From NCBI GenBank assembly GCA_029784575.1, contig JAJEUB010000001.1, positions 29,699 to 53,698 of the forward strand: a stretch of DNA of 24,000 nucleotides. The letters are read 5' to 3'. Made by a program: the position numbers and the translations under genes. Positions 5,166 to 22,519 of this stretch are shown piece after piece. Within the stretch, counting starts at the first letter, position 1, and every line of letters begins with the position of its first letter. Origin of the DNA: Wolbachia endosymbiont of Penenirmus auritus (GTDB taxonomy: Bacteria; Pseudomonadota; Alphaproteobacteria; Rickettsiales; Anaplasmataceae). The notes under the pieces are model-generated. The model searched no databases. It was given only the letters and a program-made list of their open reading frames with translations, and was not told where the DNA came from.

Positions 5166-5184
5166 CACAATAATAGCGTGTCTG

Positions 5185-5833: not shown

Positions 5834-5847
5834 TCACGATATACCTC

Positions 5848-7646: not shown

Positions 7647-7790
7647 ACATTTAAATTTCTCCGCAGCTTTGGTCCACAAAATAAACTCGTCTATTTCCAT
7701 TTCAAGTATGTGTCCAATGCCACCTCCTGTTACGGAACTTAACATTAACACATTTAGTCTCAAATCCTTTATGTAACCGATGGAAAAAAA
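7647..7790 (-). other. -1 frame E' extension of gpE (gpE+E' frameshift product, exon-1 part) including T7 slippery run
   Basis: Seven consecutive T (minus strand, 7784-7790) in zero-frame GA T TTT TTT, four codons before the gpE stop. The -1 frame stays open for 46 codons (SIGYIKDLRLNVLMLSSVTGGGIGHILEMEIDEFILWTKAAEKFKC), exactly up to the intron 5' junction at 7647. Confidence 0.55.
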
Positions 7791-8017
7791 TCTTTCAACG
7801 CTTCCTGTATTTTTATGTAGTCTGTAAAGTATAATTCTAAAATGGTTTCTTTTGTAACCAATGCTAGATTAGCTATTAACCCTACCTCTTTTTCAAAGTC
7901 ACTACTACCAGCACGTTCCATTGCTAAGCAGTCTCTCACTTTAACTGGTCTAAAAGTTAATTCTGAAACCTCAATTCCATCTACTGTTATTGGGTGTTCA
8001 AGTTTTACTGTTTTCAT
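7769..8017 (-). CDS. gpE: tail assembly chaperone (P2 gpE-like)
   Basis: 82 aa. HPITVDGIEVSELTFRPVKVRDCLAMERAG...LIANLALVTKETILELYFTDY fits the gpE pattern. Located between the tube and tape measure genes. Confidence 0.75.
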   Translation of the reverse strand: MKTVKLEHPITVDGIEVSELTFRPVKVRDCLAMERAGSSDFEKEVGLIANLALVTKETILELYFTDYIKIQEALKDFFPSVT

Positions 8018-8140
8018 GTGTTTTTCTCCTAAAAAGTTAATTAAATAAAAGTCTACATTGGCCTTTTACATAACTAATTTTTTTTACTTGAATTGTAGAA
8101 GTTGTGTTTTATTGAAGTAGTAACGATTTTACATCTGAAT

Positions 8141-8158
8141 TTTTTCAATAAAAAAGTG
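8141..8158. repeat. direct repeat flanking the TA cassette (downstream copy)
   Basis: TTTTTCAATAAAAAAGTG here versus TTTTTCAATAAGAAAAGTG at 8721-8739 (one extra G). The two copies bracket the toxin-antitoxin pair. Confidence 0.6.
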
Positions 8159-8167
8159 AAAATATGT

Positions 8168-8458
8168 TTAGTGTATATTAAGTATCTTTTTAGCCTTCTC
8201 GTAAATGGTCCCTCTATGTCCTACTGTAACTATGGTTACTTCATATTTTGAAGTGTTTACATCATATAGAACACGGTAATCACCAACCCTCAGTCCTTTA
8301 TACCCTTTAAGGCTATGGTCCAACGTTTTACCAAGATTAATAGGGTCAACCGTAAGCCGCTCGTTTATTGCTTTTATAATCCTTTTCCTTACTGTTTTCG
8401 GAAGACTTGGAAGATCTTTTTCGAGAACATTGTCTAGGTAGATAATAGTGTATCCCAA
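8168..8458 (-). CDS. type II toxin, RelE/ParE family
   Basis: 96 aa. ...KRIIKAINERLTVDP...LKGYKGLRVGDYRVLYDVN...VTIVTVGHRGTIY is the classic RelE/ParE signature. TTG start overlaps the antitoxin 3' end by 25 nt. Confidence 0.85.
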   Translation of the reverse strand: MGYTIIYLDNVLEKDLPSLPKTVRKRIIKAINERLTVDPINLGKTLDHSLKGYKGLRVGDYRVLYDVNTSKYEVTIVTVGHRGTIYEKAKKILNIH

Positions 8459-8670
8459 TCTACATCCTCACTTTTAGTCTTTTTTGCGCCTTCAATATCA
8501 TACTCATCAGCAACTGCAGATAATAGAATATCTTCCTCTTCAAGCTCAATTGCTTCTCTGATTAGCCTTTCTGCTAATTCTTGAACAGACTGCTTAGTAA
8601 GTTCAGCGAGTTCAGCAAGTTGATGTGAAGTTTCTCTGCTAAGAGCTATGCTAGTTCCCAAGTTTGCCAT
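8434..8670 (-). CDS. ribbon-helix-helix type antitoxin
   Basis: Start taken at ATG 8670 (MANLGTSIALSRETSHQLAELAELTKQSVQELAERLIREAI), giving a beta-strand plus two helices, then an acidic C-terminal tail. Directly upstream of and overlapping the toxin. Confidence 0.75.
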   Translation of the reverse strand: MANLGTSIALSRETSHQLAELAELTKQSVQELAERLIREAIELEEEDILLSAVADEYDIEGAKKTKSEDVDWDTLLST

Positions 8671-8699
8671 ATACTTTACCAAAATTTACCACCGTAACT

Positions 8700-8728
8700 A
8701 TTGTATAGCGTCTTTCTAAGTTTTTCAA
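8700..8728 (-). promoter_or_regulatory. sigma70-like promoter of the toxin-antitoxin pair
   Basis: Minus strand has TTGAAA (8728-8723), a 17-nt spacer, then TACAAT (8705-8700), about 30 nt upstream of the antitoxin ATG. Confidence 0.5.
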
Positions 8729-8739
8729 TAAGAAAAGTG
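8721..8739. repeat. direct repeat flanking the TA cassette (upstream copy, contains the -35 box)
   Basis: See the 8141-8158 copy. Confidence 0.6.
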
Positions 8740-8790
8740 TCCAATATACACACGCTATCCCTTACATTTTAACATTTTTATTTAATTTTG

Positions 8791-9297
8791 TCAAATCCCT
8801 AAAATTGCTTGTAATTTAGCCATCTGATCGACTCCGTTAATCTTGCGAATCATATTTTCAGCATCGATTTCTATTAGCTCATTTCCACCTATGGTAAGTT
8901 TGTAATAATGAGCATCAACTGTACACTTCAGCGTTGCTTTTTCCGCTGGCTTCCAACTGCCAAAATCTAGCTCTTTAAATATTCCCCTAAGGTTGATAAT
9001 TACTCCTTCAATCTCATTGCTGCCACTACCTTGTATTCCACCCCTTAGTGTCAAAGAAACCGAATTTCCATCAATCAAGCCAAAGAGTCGAAAGAGCTCT
9101 GAATCATATTCTGCAAACGTAAAATCAGCTTCAAGTTTTTCCATTCCCATATCTATGCTGACTGGAATATCCATACCGCCAGCTCTGTATTCTTCTGTTT
9201 TGATGGTAAGCTTTGGCAGAGTGATTTCGTCTATTTTTCCTGCATAACCTCGGCCATCTACGAATACGTTGAAATTCTTTAAAATTTTTGGTAACAT
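8791..9297 (-). CDS. FII: major tail tube protein (P2 FII-like)
   Basis: 168 aa. MLPKILKNFNVFVDGRGYAGKIDEITLPKLTIKTEEYRAGGMD closely parallels the P2 FII N-terminus. Confidence 0.9.
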   Translation of the reverse strand: MLPKILKNFNVFVDGRGYAGKIDEITLPKLTIKTEEYRAGGMDIPVSIDMGMEKLEADFTFAEYDSELFRLFGLIDGNSVSLTLRGGIQGSGSNEIEGVIINLRGIFKELDFGSWKPAEKATLKCTVDAHYYKLTIGGNELIEIDAENMIRKINGVDQMAKLQAILGI

Positions 9298-9344
9298 TTT
9301 TTCTCCTGTATTTGCTGGGTTTTGTGGGTGCTTAGAAAGTTTTT

Positions 9345-10547
9345 CTAAAGTATTTCACTGTTAACTAAATGCGAACGGAAGGTAATCTTTTCCGCTGGAT
9401 ATGGTGGCGTAAACTCAAAGTCAAAATACATTTTGCCGTTTGCAATATTTGCCGGTGTATTTAACTCTGATGTCGCATAACATCTTCCACTGATTATTGC
9501 TCCTTGAGCTTTTAAATTAGCCAGATAGGAATTCACACTCTCAATTACATCATCTATGTAAGTTTTGGTAATATTTCGATCAACTGCCCATAAATGAGCC
9601 CTGAGCAGGCTATCATTGATTAAATCAGCCGTTCTCCTCACCGATAGAAAAGCCCATCTTTCATCGTTTGAACATGTTCTATTTCCCCAGAGTCTGTAGC
9701 CGTTTTGATGAATTATCGTCGTTACTTCATTTTCATTGAGATAATTTGCTCGAGAGCTTGTATCACCTAGCGTAAAATCAATAGGTCGGCTTGTTCCTAT
9801 AATACCATTTATTTCTTTATTTGATGGGGATTGCCAAAATCCTTCCTCACTATCTATTTTTGCTATTAAACCAGCTACAAATGGACTAGGTGGTACAGTT
9901 TTTTCTTTTCCATCACTGAATATTTTCACCCAAGGATCTACAACGTAAACTCTTGAACTACCTACACTTTTCCTCCATTTTATTGCTTCTTCATCGTTGG
10001 TATTTGGTCCATCGGCAACTACTATTGCTCTTAGTTTTTCCGCTATTACAATTAACTTTGCAATTACTGGGTTTTGTACTATACTGTTGCTACTGCTCTC
10101 ATCTGCGGGTAACTGATGAGTAAAATGAGGAGCTATTAGTATTCTTGGTGCAACATGAGCCACACTCTCGCTACTTAAGAATGCTTGTATGCCCTCATAT
10201 TCTCCTGTTTCTTCATCAACTCCGCCAATGACGTTTGCAGTTGTTTCTTCTTCTTTTAATTTTAAATCGCTGTTTTCACTTTCCTCAACTCGGATAACTA
10301 CTACTGTTGCACCTATTTGGGAAAATATTCCATTTACTGAAGGGGGAAGAGTTCCACTTCTCCCAAGCTTTGCCGCTTCTTTTAAGCTTCCTGCTATTAA
10401 TACTGGCTTATTTAGTGGAAATTTTTGCTTGTCAGCTTCAGGTGCAGTACCAATTACTCCTATTACTGATGATTTGGCTGTACGTATTGCTCGTGATCCT
10501 GAGGTAACTTCTATAACATTTACCCCATGTAGAAATTGTTCTGTCAT
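9345..10547 (-). CDS. FI: contractile tail sheath protein (P2 FI-like)
   Basis: 400 aa. FLHGVNVIEVTSGSRAIRTAKSSVIGVIGTAPEADKQKFPLNKPVLIAG parallels the P2 FI N-terminus. Sheath-tube gene order. Confidence 0.9.
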   Translation of the reverse strand: MTEQFLHGVNVIEVTSGSRAIRTAKSSVIGVIGTAPEADKQKFPLNKPVLIAGSLKEAAKLGRSGTLPPSVNGIFSQIGATVVVIRVEESENSDLKLKEEETTANVIGGVDEETGEYEGIQAFLSSESVAHVAPRILIAPHFTHQLPADESSSNSIVQNPVIAKLIVIAEKLRAIVVADGPNTNDEEAIKWRKSVGSSRVYVVDPWVKIFSDGKEKTVPPSPFVAGLIAKIDSEEGFWQSPSNKEINGIIGTSRPIDFTLGDTSSRANYLNENEVTTIIHQNGYRLWGNRTCSNDERWAFLSVRRTADLINDSLLRAHLWAVDRNITKTYIDDVIESVNSYLANLKAQGAIISGRCYATSELNTPANIANGKMYFDFEFTPPYPAEKITFRSHLVNSEIL

Positions 10548-10592
10548 GATGATTGGTCGATTAGAGAATTTTGTTTGCTACGTGAGTAGCGT

Positions 10593-11162
10593 TTATAAGC
10601 TTGTTAGAGAGTCTCTTACTTGTTCTTTAAAGTTGTTAAGAAAACTCTGTAATTCTTCTTGGTCCTTGATTTCCTTAATTTTTTTCTTGGCTAAATCTTC
10701 CAGTTCTTCACATTTGATTATGGCTTTTACTGCTTTTTGTGCCTTTTCTTGGATCATTTGTGCCATTTCTACTACTGAAATCCCTCTCACTCTTGCCAGT
10801 GGCTCTATAATTGCTGCATCTTTTTCATCTATAGATTCTGGTGCTGCTAAAATACTCTCTGCGGCTTCCGCTTGTATCGCATACGACCTAGCTTTTTGAT
10901 GAGAATATCCTGCGTATTTGTGAGTATAGTTATCATAATAAGTGCGAAGACTAGAAAATGCAGAAAGTTTCGCATTTTGCAGTAATTCCAGCTCAATATC
11001 TTCTTTACTCCTTTCAACAATTTTTCCTCCTTCAGTTAAACGATAACTCTTTTGCCAGTCAAAATTCTTTGGTGCTTCGTACCAGTCTCCACCTTCCGGT
11101 TTATTTTCAACCACTATCACTTCTATTTGTTTGTTATTCTCAAATCTTATGTAATTTGGCAT
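10593..11162 (-). CDS. hypothetical protein, possibly tail-fibre assembly chaperone
   Basis: 189 aa with a coiled-coil acidic C-terminus. The only functional argument is its position directly after the fibre gene. Confidence 0.6.
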   Translation of the reverse strand: MPNYIRFENNKQIEVIVVENKPEGGDWYEAPKNFDWQKSYRLTEGGKIVERSKEDIELELLQNAKLSAFSSLRTYYDNYTHKYAGYSHQKARSYAIQAEAAESILAAPESIDEKDAAIIEPLARVRGISVVEMAQMIQEKAQKAVKAIIKCEELEDLAKKKIKEIKDQEELQSFLNNFKEQVRDSLTSL

Positions 11163-11173
11163 AAATCCTTTCC

Positions 11174-12643
11174 TTATTTGGCAGTGCAGATGTTAAAAAC
11201 AACATTGCCTACTGAAGATCCAGTACCACTCACCTGAACGCCTCGCAAAGCAACTCCAGAACTGACGGTTGTTGTACCACTGTGTCTAGCTATATAAATA
11301 ATCTTATTTCCTGTAAGCAACGAATTCACACTAAAATCTGTGTCATTATCATCATAGCAACCCACTGGAAGATAAATTGTTGCGCTACCTCTACCACTTT
11401 CTCTAGTATCTGTTCCATTTCCCACTGTTATGCTATATTCTCTTCTAAATAGTGATGGAAAAGCATCTACCACGCTTACTACTGTTGACCGGTAATTTTG
11501 AATATTTGCTTCAATTGCTTTACATGCTGCCTCTGACTTAATAATCATGTGTAATATTTTACCATTGCTTACCATTGCTCTTACGGCTATTGATGAAGCT
11601 GCCATTATGGTTATTGCAGATGCCGAAGCTATTATAGTTTTCATCATTTCTTCTGAACTTGCTAATACATCGATGGCGGTTGTATGAGCTACGATATTTA
11701 GTGCAACACTGCTTTTTATTAATTCCTGTATTGCCTTTGGACTTCTAATTAATTTACTTAATGCTGAAGTGTGGCCTGTTATATTCAGCACAGCATTTGC
11801 ATTACTCAGCATTTTACTAAATTTTCTACGATTTTCGGTATTGTTTAGCCAGGTTTCTAGGTTGTTATTGTTTATTGTATTTAATAATATTTCTGGATCA
11901 CTAATAATCTCAAAAGTATTTTTTAATTGATCATCTCGAGTCTTTACCTCACTTACAATGGATGTTTTTAATTGATTATCCCAAGTTTTTACTTCATTTG
12001 TAAGGGATGTTTTCAATTGCTCATCTCGAGTTTTTATCTCCTTCATAATCGATGAACCATCTGGCACATCATTCACAGCACGAAAATCTTCTACTAAACC
12101 TTTTAGACCATCTTTATGAGTATTGCTGACACTGTTTATTGCCGCGATGTTTGCATTCTTTCTTGTATCAAGTAGCGATACATATGAATCTGATGATGCT
12201 TTTAAAGTATCCAAGGTGTTAGTTTTTAGCGTATTGATTTCATTTACAGACTCTGTCTTTGCTGTAGTTATTGCTGATATTGAATTTTCCTTATTGCTGT
12301 TTATTTCATTCAAGTGTAATCTTGCAGCGCTCAGAAGTTCTTTCAGCTTACCATCTGTCATCTGTACAATTTCAGATACTGAACTTTTGTCAACTATTGA
12401 TTCCAGTGCTTTAGCAAGATATGCTAATTGATCAGGAGTACTACTTACTGCTAAATCTTTAAGCCTTTTCTGTATTGCATCAATTACCTCTTTTACTTCA
12501 GTCATCTGTTCAACGCTGAAAGTAGCTTTTTTATCTATTATCGATTCTAATGCCTTAGCAAGGTAAGCTAATTGATCAGGCGTGCTACTTGCCGCTAAGT
12601 CTTTAATCCTTTGGTGCAGTGCATTTATTGCTTCCATGCTCAT
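11174..12643 (-). CDS. tail fibre-like protein with internal tandem repeats
   Basis: 489 aa. Repeat-rich helical N-terminal two thirds and a beta-rich C-terminal domain (YSITVGNGTDTRESGRGSATIYLPVGCYDDNDTDF...). Lies between structural genes and the sheath. Confidence 0.7.
   Translation of the reverse strand: MSMEAINALHQRIKDLAASSTPDQLAYLAKALESIIDKKATFSVEQMTEVKEVIDAIQKRLKDLAVSSTPDQLAYLAKALESIVDKSSVSEIVQMTDGKLKELLSAARLHLNEINSNKENSISAITTAKTESVNEINTLKTNTLDTLKASSDSYVSLLDTRKNANIAAINSVSNTHKDGLKGLVEDFRAVNDVPDGSSIMKEIKTRDEQLKTSLTNEVKTWDNQLKTSIVSEVKTRDDQLKNTFEIISDPEILLNTINNNNLETWLNNTENRRKFSKMLSNANAVLNITGHTSALSKLIRSPKAIQELIKSSVALNIVAHTTAIDVLASSEEMMKTIIASASAITIMAASSIAVRAMVSNGKILHMIIKSEAACKAIEANIQNYRSTVVSVVDAFPSLFRREYSITVGNGTDTRESGRGSATIYLPVGCYDDNDTDFSVNSLLTGNKIIYIARHSGTTTVSSGVALRGVQVSGTGSSVGNVVFNICTAK
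11900..12034 (-). repeat. 3 x 45-nt (15-aa) tandem repeat inside the fibre gene
   Basis: KTRDEQLKTSLTNEV / KTWDNQLKTSIVSEV / KTRDDQLKNTFEIIS. Confidence 0.9.
12347..12634 (-). repeat. 2 x 144-nt (48-aa) tandem repeat inside the fibre gene
   Basis: EAINALHQRIKDLAASSTPDQLAYLAKALESIIDKKATFSVEQMTEVK / EVIDAIQKRLKDLAVSSTPDQLAYLAKALESIVDKSSVSEIVQMTDGK. The DNA motif ttagcaag recurs at offset 144. Confidence 0.9.
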
Positions 12644-12840
12644 TTATTGCCCCAAAAATTCAAGAAGGTTTCAAAATTAAATCTTTCAAATTCTTCTTTA
12701 AGATTTTTATGTTTATTTTCTCCATTAGTCATATCTTCATCTACTTTTTCTATAGCTCTTCGAATACGTACTACATCCTCTGCAGCGATGTTCTCTGGAT
12801 GCGGCAAAGGATATCCACGACTTGTTTCATCATTTGGCAT
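12640..12840 (-). CDS. small fibre-module protein
   Basis: 66 aa. ATGA stop/start overlap with the fibre gene. Contains GYPLPHPENIAAEDVVRIRRAIEKVD. Confidence 0.6.
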   Translation of the reverse strand: MPNDETSRGYPLPHPENIAAEDVVRIRRAIEKVDEDMTNGENKHKNLKEEFERFNFETFLNFWGNK

Positions 12841-12850
12841 TCTTTTTGAC

Positions 12851-14050
12851 CTATGTGATAGTTACTCTTAAATTTCTCACCTTTGGACGATAAACAACTG
12901 TCCCACTCAAAACTAATTTTACCCTTGTCTCACTAGCATTAAAGTTTGTTAGTACATGCGTTCTTTCTACCCAATTTTCTCCAATAGGTTTTCCTGTGGT
13001 TAAATTTACTAATTGCCATTTTTCTCCCCCTTCCACGTTTTTCTCTACATAAGTTTTAACGTCCGCAGTACCAGGTGTTAGCGCATCATAGATAATTGTT
13101 ATTTTAGTGTTGGAACCGGCTGTAATACTCCTTGTGACATAATCTCCAGACTCTGAAAGATTCCCTAAAACTAGCTGCAGACCAGGATAAAGTACCGGAC
13201 TTCTCTTTTCCCCTCCTTTTAGGTTTGCTTGCACTGTTACCTCTCCAGAGAGTCTTTCACGCAATGCTAACGGCAAATTATCAGACAGAAAATTTTCTTT
13301 TCCTTCCTTATCGGTTAAAATAAATTCTACATTGGTATCAAACGCTACTTTTTCAACATTTGTCAAAACTATTAAATCTGATACGTTATCTGCTGTAACT
13401 TTGCCCAGATTAAAAACGTGAAAAGTTTCTGTAAATTTTGCAGCTAGTAGTCGAAACGTAAGGTCAAAGTTTTGATGCGCAGTCCAAGTGCTTGCATTGC
13501 TCGATGAGAGTAATACTCCTACTTGATAGGGCTGACTCGTTACCCAACGACTATTTACTGCATCATATTTGCCAAGCTCTGCTACTTTTACTGCTGTGTC
13601 TGCATCATCGGTAAGTAATACTATTGCATACTCTTGCCCTGCATGGCAAAATACTGGCGACCAAGTTATACGCGTTGCTGTGCCATTTATATTAATATTT
13701 TCAGGGTTAATATAACTTTCAGCAATTACAATCTGAGAGGGCATGCCAACTGCTGTTTCTCGTATTTGCACAACAACACGTTTTTTGCCTTTATTTGTAA
13801 ACCATAACTCTATACCTCCTATGTGTCTACTTTCATTCAGTGTAAATGTCTGTGCTAATGGATCAACTCGTCTAGCTGCAATTACTCTTCTTCTTTCTTC
13901 TATGGTAATTGTTTTTTTACCAGTATACGTTGTTTCTCCATAGCTTCCCTTATCCCCGTAAAATTGCACTAATTTCGTTCCTGCTGGGATTCTTGGCGGT
14001 ATTTTTATTTTTCCACTTATTTGTCCTTGATTATTTGCTATTTTTTCCAC
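12851..14050 (-). CDS. virion structural protein (host-recognition module), family not asserted
   Basis: 399 aa, beta-rich, motif RRVDPLAQTF. Tightly packed in the structural operon. Confidence 0.7.
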   Translation of the reverse strand: MEKIANNQGQISGKIKIPPRIPAGTKLVQFYGDKGSYGETTYTGKKTITIEERRRVIAARRVDPLAQTFTLNESRHIGGIELWFTNKGKKRVVVQIRETAVGMPSQIVIAESYINPENININGTATRITWSPVFCHAGQEYAIVLLTDDADTAVKVAELGKYDAVNSRWVTSQPYQVGVLLSSSNASTWTAHQNFDLTFRLLAAKFTETFHVFNLGKVTADNVSDLIVLTNVEKVAFDTNVEFILTDKEGKENFLSDNLPLALRERLSGEVTVQANLKGGEKRSPVLYPGLQLVLGNLSESGDYVTRSITAGSNTKITIIYDALTPGTADVKTYVEKNVEGGEKWQLVNLTTGKPIGENWVERTHVLTNFNASETRVKLVLSGTVVYRPKVRNLRVTIT

Positions 14051-14062
14051 TTTTTTTGCCCC

Positions 14063-16015
14063 TCATGCTACAGGTTGGATGGTGATGCCGTCGAATTTTA
14101 TCTCTTTAAGTTTTTCATGAGCTGCAAAGCCTTCAATTTCAAAGTTTTGTACTGCTTCTCTCATAAATTCAGCTTCGTATGACCTACTTGACAGAAGCTC
14201 TGTTTCTCTAGTATTAAATTCCCGGGTTACTGGACTTTTCCAAATTGTAGATACTTCTGTCCAGTGGTCGATGTTCATATTAAGAGTCACTTTTGCCGGT
14301 ACTGGATCAAAAGCTTGATACGGATTGATCTTTTCACTTTTAGTCTGCAAAAGCTGTTCCAATACCGGCTCAAGTTCATACGGCAACAAATAAGGTTTTT
14401 TGCCCTTCTCAGCATCAATAATTTCCACGTCTATCGGCAATATCAGTTCCTTATTTACTATTGCTGCAGACTGAACAATTCCTTGATCACGCATATCATC
14501 ATCAAAGAAGGGATCAACAAATACTCCTTTTTTCGTGGTTGGCTCTCTCGAATTTGCATCATTACGTAGACGTTCCTCTGCAACCAGCGCATAAAGATCA
14601 TTTATGCCCCTTTTCATTGCTTCAAGTTCATTCATCGGCACTGCATGGATAGCATTGTTCACTACTTTTACCTTTTCCCCGTTTTTCCACGTTTGACGAA
14701 TGTAACAGAGTAAAAGTTGTCCGCTAGGCGCTTTTGGCATCGATGGCTTCCAAGGATGTGCTATACCTTTTATTCTCCTCACCACCCCTTTTGCATCTAT
14801 GGTGATTAAATCATAGCGAGGCATTTTCCAAGTGTAATCAACTAGTACTAAACTACCATCAACCGCACCTTTGATTTTACAACCTTCTTCACTTACATTC
14901 TCAGGGCTTATATGAGTGCGAGAGCGGTAGGTTATTTGATAACTACTTCCTGGTGCTGGTTCTCTTCCTGGTAATGACCAATCAACATTTCCGCTACTTA
15001 GCTTATAATCTGTACCGTTTTCATAAATAACATCTCCTTGTTTGATCTGAATAATTTCAAGTATTGCAGAGTCAGGTATAGGGTCTATAGCTCCAGAATA
15101 TGAACCATGGGTCATGGTAATAGTCTTTTGGACAGTTATATCTACCCTTTTAATTTCGCGGACTGGAAAGTCATGAACTTTAAGCTCCATTACTTTTTGG
15201 CTATTTGGCTGAAAAGTATGGGATTCTGATGCAACTGTCTTTATGTCTGGATCTTCATCAAAATAAGCTCGAATACTGTGGGATAATTCTATTTCATAGC
15301 CATCAACACGAGCTTTACCTCCATTAACCACAAATACCTGTTTTTTTGCCCCTCTTTCCCCTCCTTCGCCTTTTTCTTCTTCTGTCTGCAAAAACATTAC
15401 TTCTAGGCCACTTACAACGTAGGAACCATTTGCCTCTTTATCGTAACGAGCAAGAGCTGTGGTGACAATATTTGCTTGGGGTGGCGGTGAATGTTCTATT
15501 AATACCCCATTTTCAATATTGTAAATTGGATAAAATTCCCCATCAGTGGTGGAAAAACGTGGAAAAACACCTTCTGCTTGATATCCCCAAACGGTGGAAA
15601 CTTTAAGTCTTGCTGCCCCTACTTCTTGGTAATTGCGTGTACCAACTGCAGGATCACGAAGATTTTCATCCTCTAGTTCTGTAATGGTAGATTCTACGTA
15701 ATAAACACCTATGCGAACTGTAGTATTCAGTGGAATAGTAAACCTTTTCCCCTCTACTTTTCTCACCGCTCCACGAAGATAGATTTTTCCCGATTCAAGT
15801 GTAACTTCGCCGGTTTCCGCATCTATAATACAATTGCTTCCCGCTATAACATCACCATCGCGGAATATTGCATCACCTATGCCTTTAAGCTTAGAAAGAG
15901 CATACTCTTGGGTTTCATTTAATTCTGCCGATTGCAGACCTCTTCCTGCTAGGAATAAGCTTTTTTCATATTCTTTGTCAGGATCAAAACGATTATAATA
16001 GCCGTTTAGTGTCAT
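14063..16015 (-). CDS. large virion structural protein (possibly DUF4815-like)
   Basis: 650 aa. The N-terminus YYNRFDPDKEYEKSLFLAGRGLQSAELNETQ reminds me of the DUF4815 phage structural family, from memory only. Confidence 0.7.
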   Translation of the reverse strand: MTLNGYYNRFDPDKEYEKSLFLAGRGLQSAELNETQEYALSKLKGIGDAIFRDGDVIAGSNCIIDAETGEVTLESGKIYLRGAVRKVEGKRFTIPLNTTVRIGVYYVESTITELEDENLRDPAVGTRNYQEVGAARLKVSTVWGYQAEGVFPRFSTTDGEFYPIYNIENGVLIEHSPPPQANIVTTALARYDKEANGSYVVSGLEVMFLQTEEEKGEGGERGAKKQVFVVNGGKARVDGYEIELSHSIRAYFDEDPDIKTVASESHTFQPNSQKVMELKVHDFPVREIKRVDITVQKTITMTHGSYSGAIDPIPDSAILEIIQIKQGDVIYENGTDYKLSSGNVDWSLPGREPAPGSSYQITYRSRTHISPENVSEEGCKIKGAVDGSLVLVDYTWKMPRYDLITIDAKGVVRRIKGIAHPWKPSMPKAPSGQLLLCYIRQTWKNGEKVKVVNNAIHAVPMNELEAMKRGINDLYALVAEERLRNDANSREPTTKKGVFVDPFFDDDMRDQGIVQSAAIVNKELILPIDVEIIDAEKGKKPYLLPYELEPVLEQLLQTKSEKINPYQAFDPVPAKVTLNMNIDHWTEVSTIWKSPVTREFNTRETELLSSRSYEAEFMREAVQNFEIEGFAAHEKLKEIKFDGITIQPVA

Positions 16016-16034
16016 TTTATTTTTTAAACGATTG

Positions 16035-16715
16035 TCAAAAAGTTACTACAAATGAAAAAGTTTCCCGGGTTGCTGCAGTTCTGATAAGCGGTACAGTGTG
16101 TTCAAGCACCAACAAAATTCCAGGATTTTCCACATCTTTTGGTTCAAAATATCTCTGCCCAGGGGGTAAATTTTTCTTCAACTTGGTACCAACCATAACT
16201 CCTAGCTCTCTGATCACTTGATTTGCTGCGTCCGTGAAATCGAAAGTAAATGTGAGGAAAAGGTTGTTGGTTGGTACATTTGATGGTTTAAACCGACCAG
16301 AAGGAGTAATTAGTTCGCCATTTTCATCACCACTGCAGAAGAGGACTTCATCAGCAACACGTCTGCCAAGTTCATTGAACAGTTTTTCCGACGTAATTGG
16401 TTCTGGTGGTGTATCTTGAGTATACTCTATAGTAACACCATTTGCAATAGAACTGTTTTCTGTTCGCTGAATAACACCAGTACTACTATCGACTGTATAG
16501 TCTACGCTTGACTGATAAGACGTTTGTCCTGTAAAAACTTTTACGTCTTTGACCGGGTAGTGATCTAGGGTTATTTTGCCATCAGCGGAAAAAATTTTTT
16601 CAACTGTGTGACTACTTCCCCAATTTGCATCACCACTTCCCCAAGCAAGATGTATCGGTTGTTCTTTTATGCTCGCTGCTATTGCTGCTCTTCCCGATTG
16701 GGTGAGAATTGACAT
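16035..16715 (-). CDS. tail-collar fibre-like protein (first gene of the structural operon)
   Basis: SILTQSGRAAIAASIKEQPIHLAWGSGDANWG resembles the N-terminal tail-collar fibre domain (P2 gpH type). Start moved to ATG 16715 (AGGAG upstream) because the listed TTG at 16751 lies inside the conserved promoter-like motif. Confidence 0.65.
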   Translation of the reverse strand: MSILTQSGRAAIAASIKEQPIHLAWGSGDANWGSSHTVEKIFSADGKITLDHYPVKDVKVFTGQTSYQSSVDYTVDSSTGVIQRTENSSIANGVTIEYTQDTPPEPITSEKLFNELGRRVADEVLFCSGDENGELITPSGRFKPSNVPTNNLFLTFTFDFTDAANQVIRELGVMVGTKLKKNLPPGQRYFEPKDVENPGILLVLEHTVPLIRTAATRETFSFVVTF

Positions 16716-16742
16716 TTGAATGTTTGACTCCTGTATATATAT

Positions 16743-16770
16743 ATTCACCAAAATTACAAAAACTGTTCAG
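16743..16770 (-). promoter_or_regulatory. conserved 28-nt motif copy A (CTGAACAG-N13-GGTGAAT), upstream of the structural operon
   Basis: Minus strand AAAAAAACTGAACAGTTTTTGTAATTTTGGTGAATATATATATACAGGAG. Ends 27 nt before ATG 16715. Confidence 0.55.
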
Positions 16771-16863
16771 TTTTTTTGCAGGAAAGTGCTTCTTTTTTTG
16801 CAATAAATTTTTGTTGACTAATTTTTAATCTACTTTAGACATAATATATTTACTTTTAAGCAT

Positions 16864-18114
16864 ATGCTAAATCTTCACCCTAGCAGGGACTTTTGGGAAA
16901 ATAATCTAGAAATGCCTATATCTTCTTTGCTCAAGGACTTCCAAAATCCAATTTTACGTGAAAGTTGGCTGAATTCCCTTTCTGGTAGGCAATTAAACGT
17001 TATTTTTAACCATTGTTTTCAGGATAAGCAAAATGGACAATTGTTTAAAGATTGTGAGCTTTGGAAATGCGATGACCTCTCAACTCAACAAAAGCGTAAA
17101 ATGCTTATCAACATTTCCGAATCTTTGTTTCATTATTATTTAATCAATTGTTTTAGTCGGGCAAAATTAGAAACAACTGTAGTTGAAGTGGCACAATCTG
17201 TGTTGGCTCAAGATCTTCTCAAGTCATTTCTGCTGCAAAATAACAAATATGATAGAAAATCTTTGCTGTTCATTCTTTTTGTAACTAATCATAACTTACT
17301 GAAACAAATTTTCTGCTTTAACCAAGTACACAAAAAAGGATTTTTACCTTTTGTATTAAAGAATCCTCCAAGACAAAAGACTACTTCATTTAAGGATTTT
17401 TTATCAGAAGATATAATACAGACAATATTAAACCAACATGACCTATCTGAAAATGATAGTTTTGAAAGTCAGTTTCAAGAACTTTTCTACTGCCAAGATA
17501 GTATTTACTTATTTATACGTCGTGCTAGTAAAGATGAAGATTTATTAATGAGTTCAAATAAAGTTATACATGGCTACAAACCTAGCAGAATTATTATTGA
17601 ATTTGCTTTAAATGCTAATCAAGCAAATTTATCTATTCAAAACTTTGATCAAGGACTAAAAATAGCAAATAGGATAGCTAGCTGTTATTTTGAACGTGAA
17701 TGCTCATTTATTAACATGCATAGCCGAAATACAGCAGCACAAGTAAGTACTTTTTTGCATGGGTGCATAAAACAATATGTATCAGATATTCACTTATTTG
17801 AAATGAAATTTGGTTCACCTAAATCTAAAACTAGTCTTACGTTAAACACAGATAACATTGAAGAGTGGTTACAAAAAATAGAGCCTTCTATCGGTAGTGT
17901 ACTACATGATGTTTCTCTTATCCAACATATAAAGGTATTGTTCAAAAATAAAAAAGTTACCCTATCCTTCCAGCAAGATGCAAATTATATAGCAGTTGAT
18001 TACTCAGAACATGTCCTCAATAAAAAAGAACGGGATGATTTTAAGTCTTTAATTAGAGATAGTTATGGAATTAACGTCTTGTCAAGAACTCTCTCAAGAC
18101 AGAGAAATAATTAA
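16864..18114 (+). CDS. hypothetical protein (cassette gene A)
   Basis: 416-aa ORF on the opposite strand to all neighbours. No motif I can assign. Confidence 0.8.
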   Translation: MLNLHPSRDFWENNLEMPISSLLKDFQNPILRESWLNSLSGRQLNVIFNHCFQDKQNGQLFKDCELWKCDDLSTQQKRKMLINISESLFHYYLINCFSRAKLETTVVEVAQSVLAQDLLKSFLLQNNKYDRKSLLFILFVTNHNLLKQIFCFNQVHKKGFLPFVLKNPPRQKTTSFKDFLSEDIIQTILNQHDLSENDSFESQFQELFYCQDSIYLFIRRASKDEDLLMSSNKVIHGYKPSRIIIEFALNANQANLSIQNFDQGLKIANRIASCYFERECSFINMHSRNTAAQVSTFLHGCIKQYVSDIHLFEMKFGSPKSKTSLTLNTDNIEEWLQKIEPSIGSVLHDVSLIQHIKVLFKNKKVTLSFQQDANYIAVDYSEHVLNKKERDDFKSLIRDSYGINVLSRTLSRQRNN

Positions 18115-19186
18115 TACTATTTTAGTAAATAGGTCCTGGGTAAGTCCTAACGAAGATTACATAAGAGCTGCGGAGTATTTAAGTCGGCTTGGCTTTATTA
18201 AACTTGAAAAGTATTACTTTGTTATCTGTGCTAATGATTTAGACCTTGATTTCCCAAATGTACAAAATCCTTATTGCAAAAATGAGATTATCATTCCTTA
18301 TGATTTCAATGAAAACTTTGATGATAATCTAGCTTGCGAGGATTGCGGTCGTGATGTTTTTCCTGATACTTACAAAAAACAACGTTATCTTGTGCTTTCA
18401 ATTAAGTTAGATCCAGAAAGAATAATAAATTGGTTTGAAAACATGTTGATCGGACTTATTTGGGAGAAGGCAACAGAAGGAATATATTATATAAGCTTTA
18501 AAAGTAAGATAGTAACCGTTATCATACCAGCTTTATCCATTGATAAATCATATTTAACCATAGACAGATTAAGAACCAATGCTACTGTTCTTATAACTCT
18601 TGGAAAGGTAGATCTTAAGCTATTATTAGACCTGTATACTGTTCCTATGGCTGATTTAATTTGTGGATATCGGGCTTTAAATGAAATGCTAAGTAAGGCA
18701 GTTGAAAAAGGAGTACCAAAGCTATTACCTAATGTTTCTTTTCAGGCGTTAAGTTACTATCCTTATGTTCCACTACAGAAAACAGTTCATCAGGAGAAAA
18801 GAATATTAAGGTTAAAAATTATAGATAATACTGTTTATGTTAATGATGTTGAAGTTATAAGCAAACAGGCAACTTCAAGTATCCGCATTTTTAGAGTATT
18901 ACTTAAACAATTTTTACGTGATTTTGAAGCGGCTGAAGAATATAAATTTCTTAGTGTAATTGAAATAGCAGACAGTTTAGGTATTGAGGATCCAGAACAA
19001 CAAGTACGTAGACCGCTTAATAGAATGCAAAAAGCAATAGCTGAAAAGCTAGCTAGCACCTTGGGACTAAATATTAAACGCGATGACGTGATACAAGCGT
19101 GTAACTGGTCAGGTATAACATGTCAAGAATACGGCTACCGACTTAACCCATCTACCATTAACCTAGCTAGCTCACAACCCCTCTAA
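18065..19186 (+). CDS. hypothetical protein with Cys cluster and C-terminal wHTH-like region (cassette gene B)
   Basis: 373-aa ORF overlapping gene A by 50 nt. Its frame is closed by TAA at 18050-18052, so ATG 18065 is the first possible start. Cys55/71/91/94 (..LACEDCG..). The C-terminal IRIFRVLLKQFLRDF...LSVIEIADSLGI...VRRPLNRMQKAIAEKL looks like a winged helix. Confidence 0.8.
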   Translation: MELTSCQELSQDREIINTILVNRSWVSPNEDYIRAAEYLSRLGFIKLEKYYFVICANDLDLDFPNVQNPYCKNEIIIPYDFNENFDDNLACEDCGRDVFPDTYKKQRYLVLSIKLDPERIINWFENMLIGLIWEKATEGIYYISFKSKIVTVIIPALSIDKSYLTIDRLRTNATVLITLGKVDLKLLLDLYTVPMADLICGYRALNEMLSKAVEKGVPKLLPNVSFQALSYYPYVPLQKTVHQEKRILRLKIIDNTVYVNDVEVISKQATSSIRIFRVLLKQFLRDFEAAEEYKFLSVIEIADSLGIEDPEQQVRRPLNRMQKAIAEKLASTLGLNIKRDDVIQACNWSGITCQEYGYRLNPSTINLASSQPL

Positions 19187-19629
19187 TGTTTTCTCGTCAA
19201 GTATACTGGCAACTCCATAACTTTAACACGCAATAGCGTTGGTACTTCTTCTTCGCGGAATTTAATATAACCTTCAGTAGCTAAAACATTAATATGTTTA
19301 CGAATAGAATGATGACCCTTAAGACCAAACTTATCTTCAAAAAAATAGCAAAATTGGGTTTTAGTAAAAAAGCGTTCCTTACTCGCTTCTTCATCAATCA
19401 GCTGTAGAATTGTATCGTATTCTCTTTTCCAGAACTTCTTAGCGGCTCTTTTATGTTTAGTAAGTAATTCTTTAATTAGGTTTATGTCACTTATAATTGA
19501 AGTTAAAAGCTTGGCTATGTTTTTATCTTTAGAGACCTGTTGTTCAACGTTATTAGTATCATCAGGAGATAAAGAAGACAGGCACTCTTTAAGATTGTTG
19601 TGTTTTATTTCTTTTTTAGATTTGTTCAT
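19183..19629 (-). CDS. winged-helix DNA-binding protein (last gene of replication operon)
   Basis: 148 aa. FTKTQFCYFFEDKFGLKGHHSIRKHINVLATEGYIKF is HTH plus wing-like. Its stop codon overlaps the stop of cassette gene B. Confidence 0.65.
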   Translation of the reverse strand: MNKSKKEIKHNNLKECLSSLSPDDTNNVEQQVSKDKNIAKLLTSIISDINLIKELLTKHKRAAKKFWKREYDTILQLIDEEASKERFFTKTQFCYFFEDKFGLKGHHSIRKHINVLATEGYIKFREEEVPTLLRVKVMELPVYLTRKH

Positions 19630-19667
19630 ATATATCCTATAAAAATTATTTTAAATAAACGTGGTAT

Positions 19668-20156
19668 TTAGAATGGGATCCAACCATCCCTCTGAGGCTC
19701 GTTTGGGGTAATGACCGTATCAATTCTATTCCTGTTTCCGTACTTACTATCAGCCTCAATTCCCACTTTTGCCGTAAACTCTAGTCCATTTAAATCTGCA
19801 ATGGAGTTGAGCTTTCTGGCAAGTACTGCTTTTTCTGAAGTGTCATGTGGATGAATATTGCGTGCCGACTCCAAAATACTTCGAATCATAGAACGACCCA
19901 TTTCTCCCCAGACATCTTCTCTTTCAACGTTTGCTTTACCACTTTTAATACCAATGACTTGATAAATCTTACGTTTAGCATATGGCCCTTCAACCACGGT
20001 AAATTCAGCGTTTAAATAGATGCTGCCAGTAGCATAGCTTTTAGTGTACCAATCTTCATAACCACCAGGTTTGATGGCCATTTTGGCTTTTACTATCGTA
20101 TCTTTCGGTATTAAGTTACTTTGTGATTTTGCAGTATTAAAATCAGTGTGTAGCAT
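19668..20156 (-). CDS. DUF669-like phage protein (putative ssDNA-binding partner of the AAA_24 ATPase)
   Basis: 162 aa. LIPKDTIVKAKMAIKPGGYEDWYTKSYATGSIYLNAEFTVVEGPYAKRKIY fits the DUF669 pattern (from memory). AGGAGA SD upstream. Same operon as an AAA_24-type ATPase. Confidence 0.55.
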   Translation of the reverse strand: MLHTDFNTAKSQSNLIPKDTIVKAKMAIKPGGYEDWYTKSYATGSIYLNAEFTVVEGPYAKRKIYQVIGIKSGKANVEREDVWGEMGRSMIRSILESARNIHPHDTSEKAVLARKLNSIADLNGLEFTAKVGIEADSKYGNRNRIDTVITPNEPQRDGWIPF

Positions 20157-20353
20157 AAGTATCTCCTAAGTTTTAAAGTAAAAAAAAATTAGCTGTTCCA
20201 GTGGTCCACAATTTGATGGCCATTTTGGCTTTTACTATCGTATCTTTCGGTATTAAGTTACTTTGTGATTTTGCAGTATTAAAATCAGTGTGTAGCATAA
20301 GTATCTCCTAAGTTTTAAAGTAAAAAAAAATTAGCTGTTCCAGTGGTCCACAA
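20070..20353. repeat. perfect 142-bp tandem duplication (20070-20211 = 20212-20353)
   Basis: Base-by-base identical by my reading. Each unit holds the last 23 nt of the RepA-like gene, the intergenic SD region and the first 87 nt of the DUF669-like gene. Confidence 0.9.
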
Positions 20354-21140
20354 ACTGCCAGTAGCCATCTATCTTATCGACAAACTTGTTTGGCACACGT
20401 TCACCATTACGCAATTCAAAGACTATTTGACGAGCAGTACTTTCTTCGTCCTGACTAAACATCACCATGCCAGTACTGTAAAATCCCCTTAAAGACCCAG
20501 CACCACTTAAGCCTTGAAATGGATCTTCCTCTAACATCTTTTTGGATAGTTTTTTCGTATGATGGGTCAAGATTATTCCAGCATCTGGATTGATAACATT
20601 TCTCAGTCTTTCAAGCGTTCTTTGCAAGAAAAATAGCATAGCACTGTTGTCGTTTTCACTGCCATACTCACCTGGGTTAAAAATGTTACGCAGAGGATCA
20701 ATCGCAATAATGTCGGGTTTAAAACGCTCTTTAACGGTGTTTTTAATTTCATCTATTTCTTCACTACTGAAAGATAATTGCACTCTTGGCGTGATAATTA
20801 AGTTATTGGCAGCTATATCTAAAAGCTCTTGATCAAGTTGAAGCTGTTGCAAACGTTCTTTCATATAGTCATACTCGATTTCGGTTTGCAGGTAGAAAAT
20901 TTTCATGGGCTTACTTGGAACCATACCAAGGAATGAAACACCGGCAGCCATGTGTACTAACTACGAAATTAGAAAATCACTTTTACCAATTTTAGGTGGG
21001 CCACCAAATACCAATAGGCCTCTTTTCGTCAAAATTCTCGGTGAGATTATATCCTCTGGTATTGGCGTTTGGTCATTTAAATATTCCTTCATGCTGAAAA
21101 AAGGAATTTTTCGACTAATAGTAAAAAAGCTTTGTTCCAT
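20331..21140 (-). pseudogene. RepA-like (AAA_25-type) ATPase/helicase paralogue interrupted by an in-frame TAG
   Basis: ATG 21140 (GGAGAA SD) gives MEQSFF...PIPEDIISPRILTKRGLLVFGGPPKIGKSDFLIS, then TAG (20961-20963), then LVHMAAGVSFLGM... continuing in frame as the listed 206-aa ORF. The paralogue at 22737+ has TGG (Trp) at that position (ISWLIHMAAG). Confidence 0.8.
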
Positions 21141-21160
21141 ATTGTTCTCCGATTTTTAAA

Positions 21161-21970
21161 TTAAGCAGCAGTAGCCAAAACTTTGGCTTTAATTTTTGTG
21201 AGCAATTTACCCAGATGCGGTTCTTCAACCATATCAAGGCAGCCACTTCGATCTTTAGCCGGGTATCCCCAAGAATTAATGGTCTGACAGACAAAAGAAC
21301 GTACTTCTGTACCATCATCTTTCTTGATGCCAACCATGCTAATTACTTCATCAACAATCCCGGGAATTTCACTGGCAGTTTTGGCCCCTTCGCATTGAGG
21401 TAGCCATGTTGAACGATTGAGATCATCAAGATACTGACCTAGTGTGCCAACTATGATGATGTCTTTATCCGGAATATGTTGAAACTGATTAAGCCAAGCC
21501 ATCATCTCTTGAGCAAGCATGCCGTAAGCAGCTCTTTTATCTTCTCTCCCTGATCGATCAGAAAAAGCTTCAGGTTGCATTCTTGCCCAGGAAAGACATA
21601 AACGTGATGCAACAGTTATACTGTCGATAAAGATGTAACGGTACTTAGAAACCTCAGAGAGAAGATCTTTATGCTTGCCAGATACATGCTCATAGTGTCT
21701 TTGGCTATATGCTTGATCAGATTTCAGTGCTGGATTTGGCCCACCAATAAGACAAGCAATATCTCTTGCCTCATTCCAAGTGCGCATCTTGATTGAATCT
21801 CCTTTCCAGTCTTGGACGGCAAGAAGTCCTGCTTCAAAATCAAGACAGAGTGTTTTCGACTCCTCAAGAGTTTTTAGCAGACTGGTCTTGCCGATTCCAT
21901 AAGGTCCAAAGATTACTATCTTCACACCTGTTACCATTTTTACTCTTTCTTCGCTGTTCATTATTTTCAT
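21161..21970 (-). CDS. AAA_24 / Sak4-like RecA-fold ATPase
   Basis: Walker A VKIVIFGPYGIGKTSL and Walker B YRYIFIDSIT. Start moved to ATG 21970 (AGGGGG SD) because the listed TTG at 22000 lies within motif copy B. Confidence 0.8.
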   Translation of the reverse strand: MKIMNSEERVKMVTGVKIVIFGPYGIGKTSLLKTLEESKTLCLDFEAGLLAVQDWKGDSIKMRTWNEARDIACLIGGPNPALKSDQAYSQRHYEHVSGKHKDLLSEVSKYRYIFIDSITVASRLCLSWARMQPEAFSDRSGREDKRAAYGMLAQEMMAWLNQFQHIPDKDIIIVGTLGQYLDDLNRSTWLPQCEGAKTASEIPGIVDEVISMVGIKKDDGTEVRSFVCQTINSWGYPAKDRSGCLDMVEEPHLGKLLTKIKAKVLATAA

Positions 21971-21991
21971 ATTTTTACCCCCTATATATAA

Positions 21992-22019
21992 ATTCACCAA
22001 ACTTCAGAAAACTGTTCAG
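21992..22019 (-). promoter_or_regulatory. conserved 28-nt motif copy B, upstream of the replication operon and overlapping the sigma-gene stop codon
   Basis: Minus strand AAAAAAAACTGAACAGTTTTCTGAAGTTTGGTGAATTTATATATAGGGGG. The TGA of the sigma gene is inside CTGAACAG. Ends 21 nt before ATG 21970. Confidence 0.55.
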
Positions 22020-22519
22020 TTTTTTTTGTGTTTTTTTCCGTAAATAGGTGCAAATTTAGGTCGCACCCTCTTGATAATGTTGTGTAAAGTAGTTCGTGAC
22101 ATATTGTTCATCTCTGCAACTTCAGCAATGCTTTTGTGTTTTAGCTGTTCAAATAAAATTCGCTGTTTCTTTGGTAGCTTTGAAATAATTTGCTCAACGT
22201 CAACACGTAGTATCGCTTCATCTTCAAAGCAATAACTTTCCTGTTGCATGTAGTTTTCAAGGTTGGGAGTATTACGTGAGTGGTCACGGACTAGATTGTT
22301 GATATGATTTTTAATAACTTGTTTAGTAAAAGTCGAAAGACTGCCCTTAGTTTTATCGTATTGATCTAAACATGAAAAAAACTTACAGAAAAGGTCTTGC
22401 TCTATGTCTTCAATATCTTGATCAGCAAAGCATTTAAGTGACTTGTAATATCTTGCATAAAATTTTATTAAATTAGTAACTTTAGGGTCGATGCCTGAAT
22501 AAGAGTTTCGAGATTTCAT
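22016..22519 (-). CDS. sigma-70 family (ECF-like, regions 2 and 4) RNA polymerase sigma factor
   Basis: 167 aa. Region 2-like DIEDIEQDLFCKFFSCLDQYDKTKGSLSTFTKQVIKNHINNLVRDHSR. Region 4 HTH LPKKQRILFEQLKHKSIAEVAEMNNMSRTTLHNIIKRVR. Confidence 0.85.
   Translation of the reverse strand: MKSRNSYSGIDPKVTNLIKFYARYYKSLKCFADQDIEDIEQDLFCKFFSCLDQYDKTKGSLSTFTKQVIKNHINNLVRDHSRNTPNLENYMQQESYCFEDEAILRVDVEQIISKLPKKQRILFEQLKHKSIAEVAEMNNMSRTTLHNIIKRVRPKFAPIYGKKHKKN

Follow-up and report, generated by a model that had tools for sequence, protein, structure and literature searches.

The WO-PC1 gene pair of a Wolbachia prophage as a putative DNA-binding component of a temperate-phage lysogeny module

The stretch of DNA analyzed here (the window; 24,000 nucleotides from the Wolbachia endosymbiont of Penenirmus auritus, assembly GCA_029784575.1, contig JAJEUB010000001.1, positions 29,699 to 53,698) is a WO-type prophage that carries two overlapping plus-strand genes, designated A and B. 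Gene A (16864..18114) starts with ATG and encodes 416 amino acids (aa), and gene B (18065..19186) likewise starts with ATG and encodes 373 aa. Both are intact in the list of open reading frames (ORFs) and in the sequence, and they share 50 nt (18065..18114). B is 100% identical to a protein recorded for the Wolbachia endosymbiont of Penenirmus auritus. A and B are the sole convincing plus-strand genes before approximately 22.7 kb; no other plus-strand ORF there exceeds 236 aa, and these ORFs run antisense to annotated phage genes. An earlier inspection of the letters alone, referred to below as the sequence-only reading, had given these coordinates, lengths and the overlap exactly, and it had correctly singled out A and B as the only long plus-strand genes of this interval.

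On the minus strand, 465..16751 contains tail and tail-fiber genes, for which Pfam and PHROG matches indicated tape measure, sheath, head-closure/tube, DUF4815 and BW3TFN proteins. The opposite flank, 19183..22519 (minus strand), contains a replication/early module composed of phrog_38526, phrog_2300, AAA_25, AAA_24/Sak4-like and sigma-70-like genes. The stop codon of B shares 19183..19186 with that of a convergent 148-aa ORF. The pair had been described as lying between the structural and replication modules and as ending convergently with the replication operon; both points hold, and the position is specific to this WO synteny variant. The ratio of nonsynonymous to synonymous substitution rates (dN/dS) was 0.14 for A, compared to an 83%-identical Wolbachia orthologue, and 0.20 for B, compared to an 80%-identical one. 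The flanking BW3TFN, DUF4815, AAA_24 and sigma genes gave 0.09-0.18, the same range. By this measure A and B are real genes under purifying selection. The G+C content of A is 31.0% and that of B 33.5%, and the rest of the window has 37.3%; GC skew flips sign across the pair, as expected from the strand switch.

A belongs to phrog_21102 (E 6e-160) and B to phrog_25990 (E 4e-136), both families of unknown function. By tblastn, an adjacent, overlapping A/B pair was located in three deposited WO phages, WOKue (gp10/gp9), WOVitA2 and sr1WOdamA, at 42-48% identity to the window proteins; the WOVitA2 copies lie at 1951..3147 (A, 47% identity) and 3113..4222 (B, 43%). The WOVitA2 pair is convergent with a primase-helicase gene and divergent from the gene for a 543-aa large serine recombinase, which matched a locally built recombinase hidden Markov model (HMM) at E 1.9e-124. 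The sr1WOdamA pair likewise lies next to a large serine recombinase. The published gene order of sr1WO is recombinase, WO-PC1 and replication, where WO-PC1 comprises the hypothetical proteins WOCauB3_gp2-gp3; sr2WO phages have the recombinase and lack WO-PC1 (Bordenstein & Bordenstein 2022, PMC9203015). Since the gene order of WOVitA2 is the published sr1WO order, A and B are identified, by homology and sr1WO synteny, as the known WO-PC1 cluster, and the link to WOCauB3 gp2-gp3 runs via that synteny. A 2026 paper still treats WO-PC1 as a function-unknown cluster and uses it as a WO marker (PMC13439711). The sequence-only reading had called the pair an orphan, a label that does not survive its two PHROG families, the published cluster and the 298-cluster family described below.

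The layout of the window (a leftward tail-fiber gene, A and B rightward, the replication module and sigma-like gene leftward, and a rightward primase-helicase gene) was also found in other Wolbachia genomes (loci L042-L045). No recombinase lies within the window, and in the window and L042-L045 the pair is flanked by the BW3TFN tail-fiber gene and the replication module, whereas in sr1WO it lies beside the recombinase. The window order is thus a synteny variant, and the homology to WO-PC1 is unaffected. The sr3WO-type layout (L004-L007) differs as well, with a RuvC-like 152-aa gene, a ParB-methylase gene and the head module upstream of the pair. The suggestion that A and B form a moron at a variable junction hotspot has to be dropped in favor of a conserved core pair under purifying selection.

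The homologues returned by word-indexed searches were limited to Wolbachia, Candidatus Mesenet and unnamed metagenome proteins. When the A alignment was used as query, an exhaustive profile search retrieved 298 clusters (50% identity) at E<=1e-3, including 84 at E<=1e-30; they are mostly 400-430 aa in length, and some are AT-rich in composition while others are very GC-rich. Scanning GTDB genomes with a degenerate pattern yielded 34 loci in at least 8 phyla. The taxa were Nitrospirota, Acidobacteriota, Planctomycetota, Magnetococcales and other Pseudomonadota, Acidimicrobiaceae, Anaerolineaceae, a deltaproteobacterium and Hydrogenedentales. All of these loci were retrieved by a single peptide pattern, PEWI[IV]LDF, and therefore sample one subfamily; the set includes close relatives (e.g. 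L008/L009 and L017/L024/L029), and its ORFs were called with a simple script. The A or B ORF was split in four loci from metagenome-assembled genomes (L013, L024, L030 and L038), which may reflect sequencing errors or decay. When distant family members were compared by tblastn to cultured phage genomes, only WO was matched, and neither tblastn against plasmids nor scans of IMG/VR with single proteins gave a match. An A homologue of 63% identity (P0006), encoded on a 63-kb contig, is listed under the spider Trichonephila clavata; it probably stems from contamination by Wolbachia or from lateral transfer into the host assembly.

Local HMM searches placed a B homologue immediately 3' of A in 31 of 32 evaluable non-Wolbachia loci. 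B was in the +1 frame relative to A in every locus with single intact ORFs (32/32), and the overlap, 35-59 nt in most loci, was always 2 mod 3. In the window the dual-coding segment (18065..18114, plus strand, B in the +1 frame) encodes the C-terminal tail of A and the N-terminus of B, both of which are conserved. Two natural fusions were recognized with a broader B HMM. In P0233 (781 aa), A is followed by the N-terminal, Cys4 and middle regions of B (26.9 bits), and in P0138 (601 aa) the N-terminal and middle regions of B precede A. The same HMM did not detect B in P0222, and when the B profile was aligned by hhalign with the C-terminal half of either long protein, P0222 or P0138, the result fell short of significance. 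The constancy of the +1 frame, the adjacency and the fusions argue for joint action of A and B, probably in a complex. The long +1 overlap may represent inherited dual coding or translational coupling, and it may also permit a programmed +1 frameshift that yields an A-B fusion. The tight coupling of A and B proposed from the overlap in the window alone is thereby extended to 32 loci and to fusion proteins.

The neighborhood of the pair outside Wolbachia was assessed on the same loci and on a Logan contig, L003 (50.9 kb, 43% G+C), whose A protein is 42% identical to that of the window. One strand of L003 carries DUF2924 and large serine recombinase genes; the other carries, in order and overlapping, a LexA_DNA_bind+Peptidase_S24 gene, A and B, and these are met by convergent Toprim/AAA_25 and AAA_24 genes. 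The Pfam families found among 125 ORFs that flank the pair in the 34 loci were Resolvase/Recombinase/Zn_ribbon_recom (11), LexA_DNA_bind+Peptidase_S24 (6), Peptidase_M78 (5), HTH_3 (3) and DUF2924 (2). Local HMMs were run on all ORFs, which corrected antisense ORF calls in GC-rich DNA. An S24 repressor was the gene directly upstream of A, on the same strand, in 12 loci (gap below approximately 120 nt, or overlap), and an XRE-HTH plus M78-protease pair occupied that place in 8 loci and in one truncated contig. A repressor of one or the other type thus stood straight before the pair in 20 of 28 loci; in 2 additional loci one or two genes separated an upstream S24 gene from A. A large serine recombinase, with or without DUF2924, was found upstream, at a distance of 0.5-5 kb, in 24 of the 28 loci with enough upstream sequence. 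The gene after B is usually convergent, so the pair ends its transcription unit.

The early operon beyond the pair opens with a sigma-like gene homologous (E 2.8e-33) to the sigma-70-like gene that heads the early/replication operon of the window (22016..22519, minus strand; Pfam Sigma70_r2 and r4_2). It continues with AAA_24, DUF669 and helicase genes. AAA_24 lies downstream of A/B in L003, L018, L019, L021, L022, L028 and L038, and its counterpart in the early module of the window is the AAA_24/Sak4-like gene at 21161..22000 (minus strand; Pfam AAA_24 3.7e-38, phrog_124). A variable family of 100-450-aa proteins, encoded convergently to B and divergently from the sigma-like gene, was present in 19 non-Wolbachia loci between L008 and L039; it gave no Pfam match and has no homologue in the window, and it could be a further switch component.

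Taken together, gene order indicates that integrase, repressor, A-B, sigma-like gene and Sak4-type module form a block inherited within a broad lineage of temperate phages, WO among them. As judged from the same loci, this is a widespread lineage that integrates by means of a large serine recombinase, and the ancestral site of the pair is between the repressor/integrase genes and the early module, with A and B as distal genes of the repressor transcription unit. WO retains A/B, the sigma-like gene and the AAA_24 module and has lost the adjacent repressor. The operons in question are of the ImmR/ImmA type (HTH_3 and Peptidase_M78) or the cI/LexA type (LexA_DNA_bind and Peptidase_S24). In relatives A and B sit downstream in such operons, but they are not homologues of the repressors or proteases, and the WO copies have no linked repressor genes.

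Protein A, encoded by the first gene of WO-PC1 (16864..18114, plus strand), is predicted to consist of an N-terminal helical domain and an alpha/beta body similar to RdgC and CENP-N. In the AlphaFold2 model (predicted local distance difference test, pLDDT, 83.6) the helical domain covers approximately residues 1-160 and the alpha/beta body has long hairpins. When the model was compared to the PDB with Foldseek, the top match was human CENP-N (7pkn_N, 5.9e-6), followed by the RdgC proteins of E. coli (1.2e-5) and P. aeruginosa (3e-5); RdgC entries 2OWL and 2OWY spanned E 1.2e-5 to 4.7e-5, and yeast Chl4 and Iml3 were matched at 1e-3 to 2e-2 (Iml3 6e-3). The top matches had a probability of 1.0 over approximately 300 columns, and the probability was 1.0 for Iml3 too. 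Among the viral models of BFVD, the best named matches were phage proteins annotated "recombination-associated protein RdgC/exonuclease" (3e-5 to 6e-4), and matches to phage RdgC proteins ran from 3e-6 to 6e-4. Searches with the A sequence gave no Pfam, NCBIfam or PADLOC match, 37 family members likewise gave no Pfam match, and the profiles of both the A and the B family gave only chance matches to PDB sequences. On the strength of the model, A is predicted to belong to the RdgC/CENP-N fold class, a class of DNA clamps.

Three known systems invite comparison. The fold class forms rings or horseshoes around DNA, and its RdgC-fold members are DNA-architectural proteins; RdgC itself binds DNA non-specifically and is summarized as lowering RecA strand exchange and RecA-dependent LexA cleavage (PMC11077077). 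RdgC (2OWL, 2OWY; PF04381) is among the best solved-structure matches of A, CENP-N being marginally better, but RdgC stands alone as a homodimer, whereas the gene for A comes with an obligate partner. RexA of phage lambda is encoded right after cI, and its reported structural relatives are RdgC, Iml3 and Chl4/CENP-N (PMC11077077). The predicted fold class of A is thus the one reported for RexA, and in relatives A likewise lies directly after a cI/LexA-type repressor as part of a two-gene unit. The two proteins differ in that they have no sequence similarity, in length (279 aa for RexA, 416 aa for A) and in the extra N-terminal helical domain of A. Their partners differ as well: RexB is a polytopic membrane protein, whereas B is predicted to be soluble, with Cys4 and winged-helix-like parts. 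The Rex-type adjacency to a repressor holds in relatives of A/B, but not in the window or other Wolbachia loci. CENP-N/CENP-L (Chl4/Iml3; structural matches of A 7pkn_N, 6eqt, 8ovw_N and 4it3) is a two-protein assembly that grips DNA and is built on the same fold class. It belongs to the eukaryotic kinetochore, no evolutionary or functional link is implied, and B has no detectable CENP-L-like fold.

Protein B, encoded by the second gene of WO-PC1 (18065..19186, plus strand), is predicted to comprise a small N-terminal domain, a Cys4 segment, an alpha/beta middle and a winged-helix-like C-terminus. Its AlphaFold2 model (pLDDT 75.7) has a small N-terminal alpha/beta unit and a poorly conserved alpha/beta middle domain. 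The codons of Cys55, Cys71, Cys91 and Cys94, followed by those of Arg96 and Pro100, lie at 18227..18346 (plus strand) and specify a putative zinc ribbon. All six residues were identical in 34 of 34 aligned homologues, from Wolbachia to Nitrospirota and Acidobacteriota, so the four cysteines pointed out in the sequence-only reading proved invariant. Their spacing, C-x15-C-x19-C-x2-C, is atypical compared to the classical CxxC...CxxC ribbon, and model confidence in the segment (residues 55-107) is 53-76.

The C-terminal domain of B (approximately aa 262-367; 18848..19165, plus strand) ends with a GYR(L/I)NP motif. Its modeled order is helix-helix-helix-strand-strand (H270-288, H298-305, H310-333, E343-347, E356-360), with which the previously proposed winged-helix-like C-terminus is consistent, and its conserved residues are R315, N319, Q322, G334, G357, Y358, R359, N361 and P362. 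Foldseek against the PDB gave only weak winged helix-turn-helix (wHTH) matches, namely ScpB, MarR and ArsR (MarR/ArsR E 0.4-2) and the GlnR DNA-binding domain (TMt 0.57, E 0.8), and found no fold for the N-terminal or middle domains. By sequence, B matched nothing in Pfam, NCBIfam or PADLOC, nor did 24 family members match Pfam. The profile of the C-terminal domain gave only chance matches to PDB sequences, none of them a DNA-binding protein or solved wHTH, and B was assigned to no named wHTH family, OmpR/PhoB-type or other. The Kyte-Doolittle mean over 19 residues peaks at 1.36 in B, which therefore contains no hydrophobic segment and lacks the feature of a RexB-type membrane partner. Neither family has conserved catalytic-type residues or a transmembrane segment. 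The sr2WO phages encode a stand-alone 160-aa protein that is homologous only to this C-terminal domain (41% identity over B residues 244-370; L002 528..1007 in KX522565, WOVitA1 gwv_1134, and also HQ906662 and HQ906665), and its gene adjoins AAA_25 replication genes.

We propose, at about even confidence, that A and B are a translationally coupled, putatively non-enzymatic DNA-binding pair of the lysogeny module that modulates the switch. DNA binding, an A-B complex, expression in lysogens and an effect on RecA or on the switch are what we infer from the likenesses set out above. Ancestrally, the pair would be transcribed as the distal part of the prophage repressor operon, and from that position it would be made in the lysogen. 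A, with its ring/horseshoe fold class, and B, with its putative Cys4 zinc ribbon and winged-helix-like domain, would act together on DNA, and the natural fusions suggest that they probably do so as a complex. S24 LexA/cI repressors and ImmR/ImmA-type pairs are both inactivated upon RecA-dependent DNA-damage signals. Because both types of upstream repressor respond to RecA, and RdgC damps RecA, tuning of the lysogeny/lytic decision is favored: the pair would limit the access of RecA-family proteins and hence RecA-dependent inactivation of the repressor, as RdgC does for LexA. Alternatively, the pair would keep the adjacent sigma-driven early operon silent by architectural silencing. We give the specific RecA route much less weight than the general proposal of a DNA-binding accessory of the lysogeny switch. 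As with RexA, other phages might be excluded as a by-product. Phage WO has lost the linked repressor, and there the pair would be expressed from its own promoter beside the replication module.

A bolder form of this proposal, which we regard as doubtful, is that RdgC-fold A and Cys4/wHTH B are an ancient, hitherto unrecognized third component of temperate-phage switches. In at least 8 phyla, serine-integrase phages would co-transcribe them with RecA-responsive repressors (S24 or XRE+M78), and the threshold of induction would be set by the pair via RecA-family access or early-operon silencing. The +1 overlap would serve a programmed +1 frameshift whose A-B product resembles the natural fusions, and the pair would be the remaining handle on WO lysogeny in Wolbachia.

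Several observations weigh against a role in the lysogeny switch. No repressor gene adjoins the pair in the window or in any Wolbachia locus examined, so for these loci the operon argument holds by homology only. The pair always borders the replication/recombination module, and a role there is possible. With RdgC and CENP-N, A reaches TM-scores of only 0.2-0.3, which would be expected if the domains are oriented differently; RexA is absent from the best 50 Foldseek matches of A, in the PDB and BFVD alike. The Pfam RdgC profile (PF04381) matched neither A nor any of 37 family members at E<=1, and no sequence profile ties A to RdgC or RexA. The winged-helix assignment of B comes from a medium-confidence model and from Foldseek matches at E>0.1, and the isoelectric points of the A and B families are near neutral (median 6.7), which is untypical of strong non-specific DNA binders. 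The literature searched contained no report of expression, binding or phenotype for any member of the family, nor did it confirm a supposed link between KwaB and RdgC.

The same evidence bears on other functions. A and B could be a Rex-like pair for superinfection exclusion or abortive infection, expressed by the prophage together with the repressor, recognizing incoming phage DNA or replication intermediates and blocking growth. The site right after a cI/LexA-type repressor is classic for exclusion genes (lambda cI-rexA-rexB), and the two-gene architecture is kept across phyla. RexA moreover has an RdgC-like fold, the predicted fold class of A, and Rex-like pairs adjoin CI-like repressors in actinophages (PMC11077077). 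However, the anti-phage role put forward in the sequence-only reading found no backing in PADLOC-DB 2.0, in which no model matched A or B at E<=1. The pair has no effector: motifs of nucleases, NADases and proteases are missing, and so is a membrane partner, B being predicted to be soluble, unlike RexB. The pair is a fixed core component with constant neighbors, not variable cargo. Wolbachia is, in addition, intracellular and seldom meets foreign phage. We consider exclusion as the primary function unlikely.

Somewhat less likely still is a role in replication or recombination, with B as an origin-binding replisome organizer and A as an RdgC-type clamp acting on Sak4/RecA-type recombination-dependent replication. 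The combination of a zinc ribbon and a wHTH-like domain occurs in many initiators, the best viral fold matches of A are the phage proteins annotated as RdgC or recombination-associated, and the pair always adjoins the early module (AAA_24 Sak4-like, DUF669, helicases, primase-helicase). Yet it lies outside the early operon: it points the same way as the repressor genes, which it overlaps or almost abuts, and is mostly convergent with the next gene. No profile matched a known initiator, loader or RdgC family, and the AAA_25 gene of the window has a premature stop while A and B are intact. It is improbable, in our view, that the pair serves as accessory factors of the large serine recombinase, controlling the direction or site of integration and excision, for example by holding the prophage integrated while repressor is made. 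Known directionality factors of serine integrases are small or mid-size single proteins of the lytic phase that bind the integrase. The recombinase, often with DUF2924, does lie upstream in 24 of 28 loci, and the sr1WO pair is divergent from the recombinase gene, but the pair is away from the recombinase in several WO variants, including the window. Published maps adjoin WO-PC1 to the recombinase, although sr2WO has a recombinase without WO-PC1 (PMC9203015); in favor of such a function, RdgC-fold proteins are DNA-architectural (PMC11077077).

Of the roles suggested in the sequence-only reading, a switch or an exclusion function fits the repressor-operon and integrase context, whereas the third, a moron or host-directed effector that WO would have gained for use on its arthropod host, is very unlikely. 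It could appeal to the slightly lower G+C of A/B (31-33.5% compared to 37%), their opposite strand and their place at a module junction. But within WO the pair is a core cluster that is conserved, and neither A nor B showed ankyrin repeats, secretion signals or domains of eukaryotic type. Prophages of free-living bacteria from many phyla (including Nitrospirota, Acidobacteriota, Planctomycetota and Magnetococcales) carry homologous pairs in the same synteny, a distribution that effectively refutes the host-effector reading.

The intergenic region between the divergent BW3TFN tail-fiber gene and A (16752..16863) presumably holds the A/B promoter. It can be aligned to the closest Wolbachia relative, L042, including TTGACTAAT..TTTAGACATAATATATTTAC, and does not align to the upstream regions of the sr3WO type. 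When the region was compared to phage genomes by megablast, the sole match was a 45-bp segment (16736..16780) that is 95.7% identical to WOVitA2 33406..33451. This segment spans the start of the BW3TFN tail-fiber gene and bases upstream of it; DNA-level conservation at the junction was seen on the tail-fiber side and not on the A/B side. A promoter-like motif had been noted near the start of A, but the promoter/terminator scan did no better than on shuffled sequence: 16500..19700 contains 13 sigma-70-like promoter matches, compared to 13.7 +/- 4.0 in shuffles.

Other features of the window concern the neighboring modules. The gene for the AAA_25 (RepA-like ATPase) protein (20331..21140, minus strand) has an in-frame TAA just past the Walker A motif (..GPPKIGKSDFLIS*), and the sister assembly L045 encodes an intact protein of 269 aa; the replication module of the window prophage may be decaying while A and B are intact. 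A perfect tandem duplication of 142 bp (20070..20353; 2.0 copies, 100% identity) covers the 5' end of a 162-aa ORF together with the 3' end of the AAA_25 gene. The L045 contig, otherwise 99.8% identical, lacks this duplication, which is either a recent event or an assembly artefact. The tail module has an insert at 5848..7182 (minus strand) that separates the tape-measure region from the tail assembly chaperone gene and encodes a 444-aa reverse transcriptase (phrog_1423). The equivalents of this protein are RVT_1 in L045 and RVT_1+GIIM in related loci, and a group II intron is the probable identity of the insert. A ParE-toxin-like ORF (8168..8458, minus strand; PF05016 in the equivalent L045 gene) and a small overlapping upstream ORF (8434..8682, minus strand), located between the genes for tail tube and tail chaperone, look like a toxin-antitoxin pair inserted in the tail operon.

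WO-PC1 was known already as a catalogued cluster; according to the literature searched, its breadth, its repressor-operon context and the fold assignment are new. WO activity affects both Wolbachia density and the spread of the cif genes. The proposal that A and B act in the lysogeny module turns WO-PC1 from a function-unknown marker into a concrete candidate for control of the lysogeny/lytic decision of phage WO, now tied to repressor/integrase operons in prophages of culturable or at least free-living phyla. A widespread module at a lambda rexAB-like site with a different partner suggests further that RdgC-fold proteins may be regular accessories of phage immunity regions.

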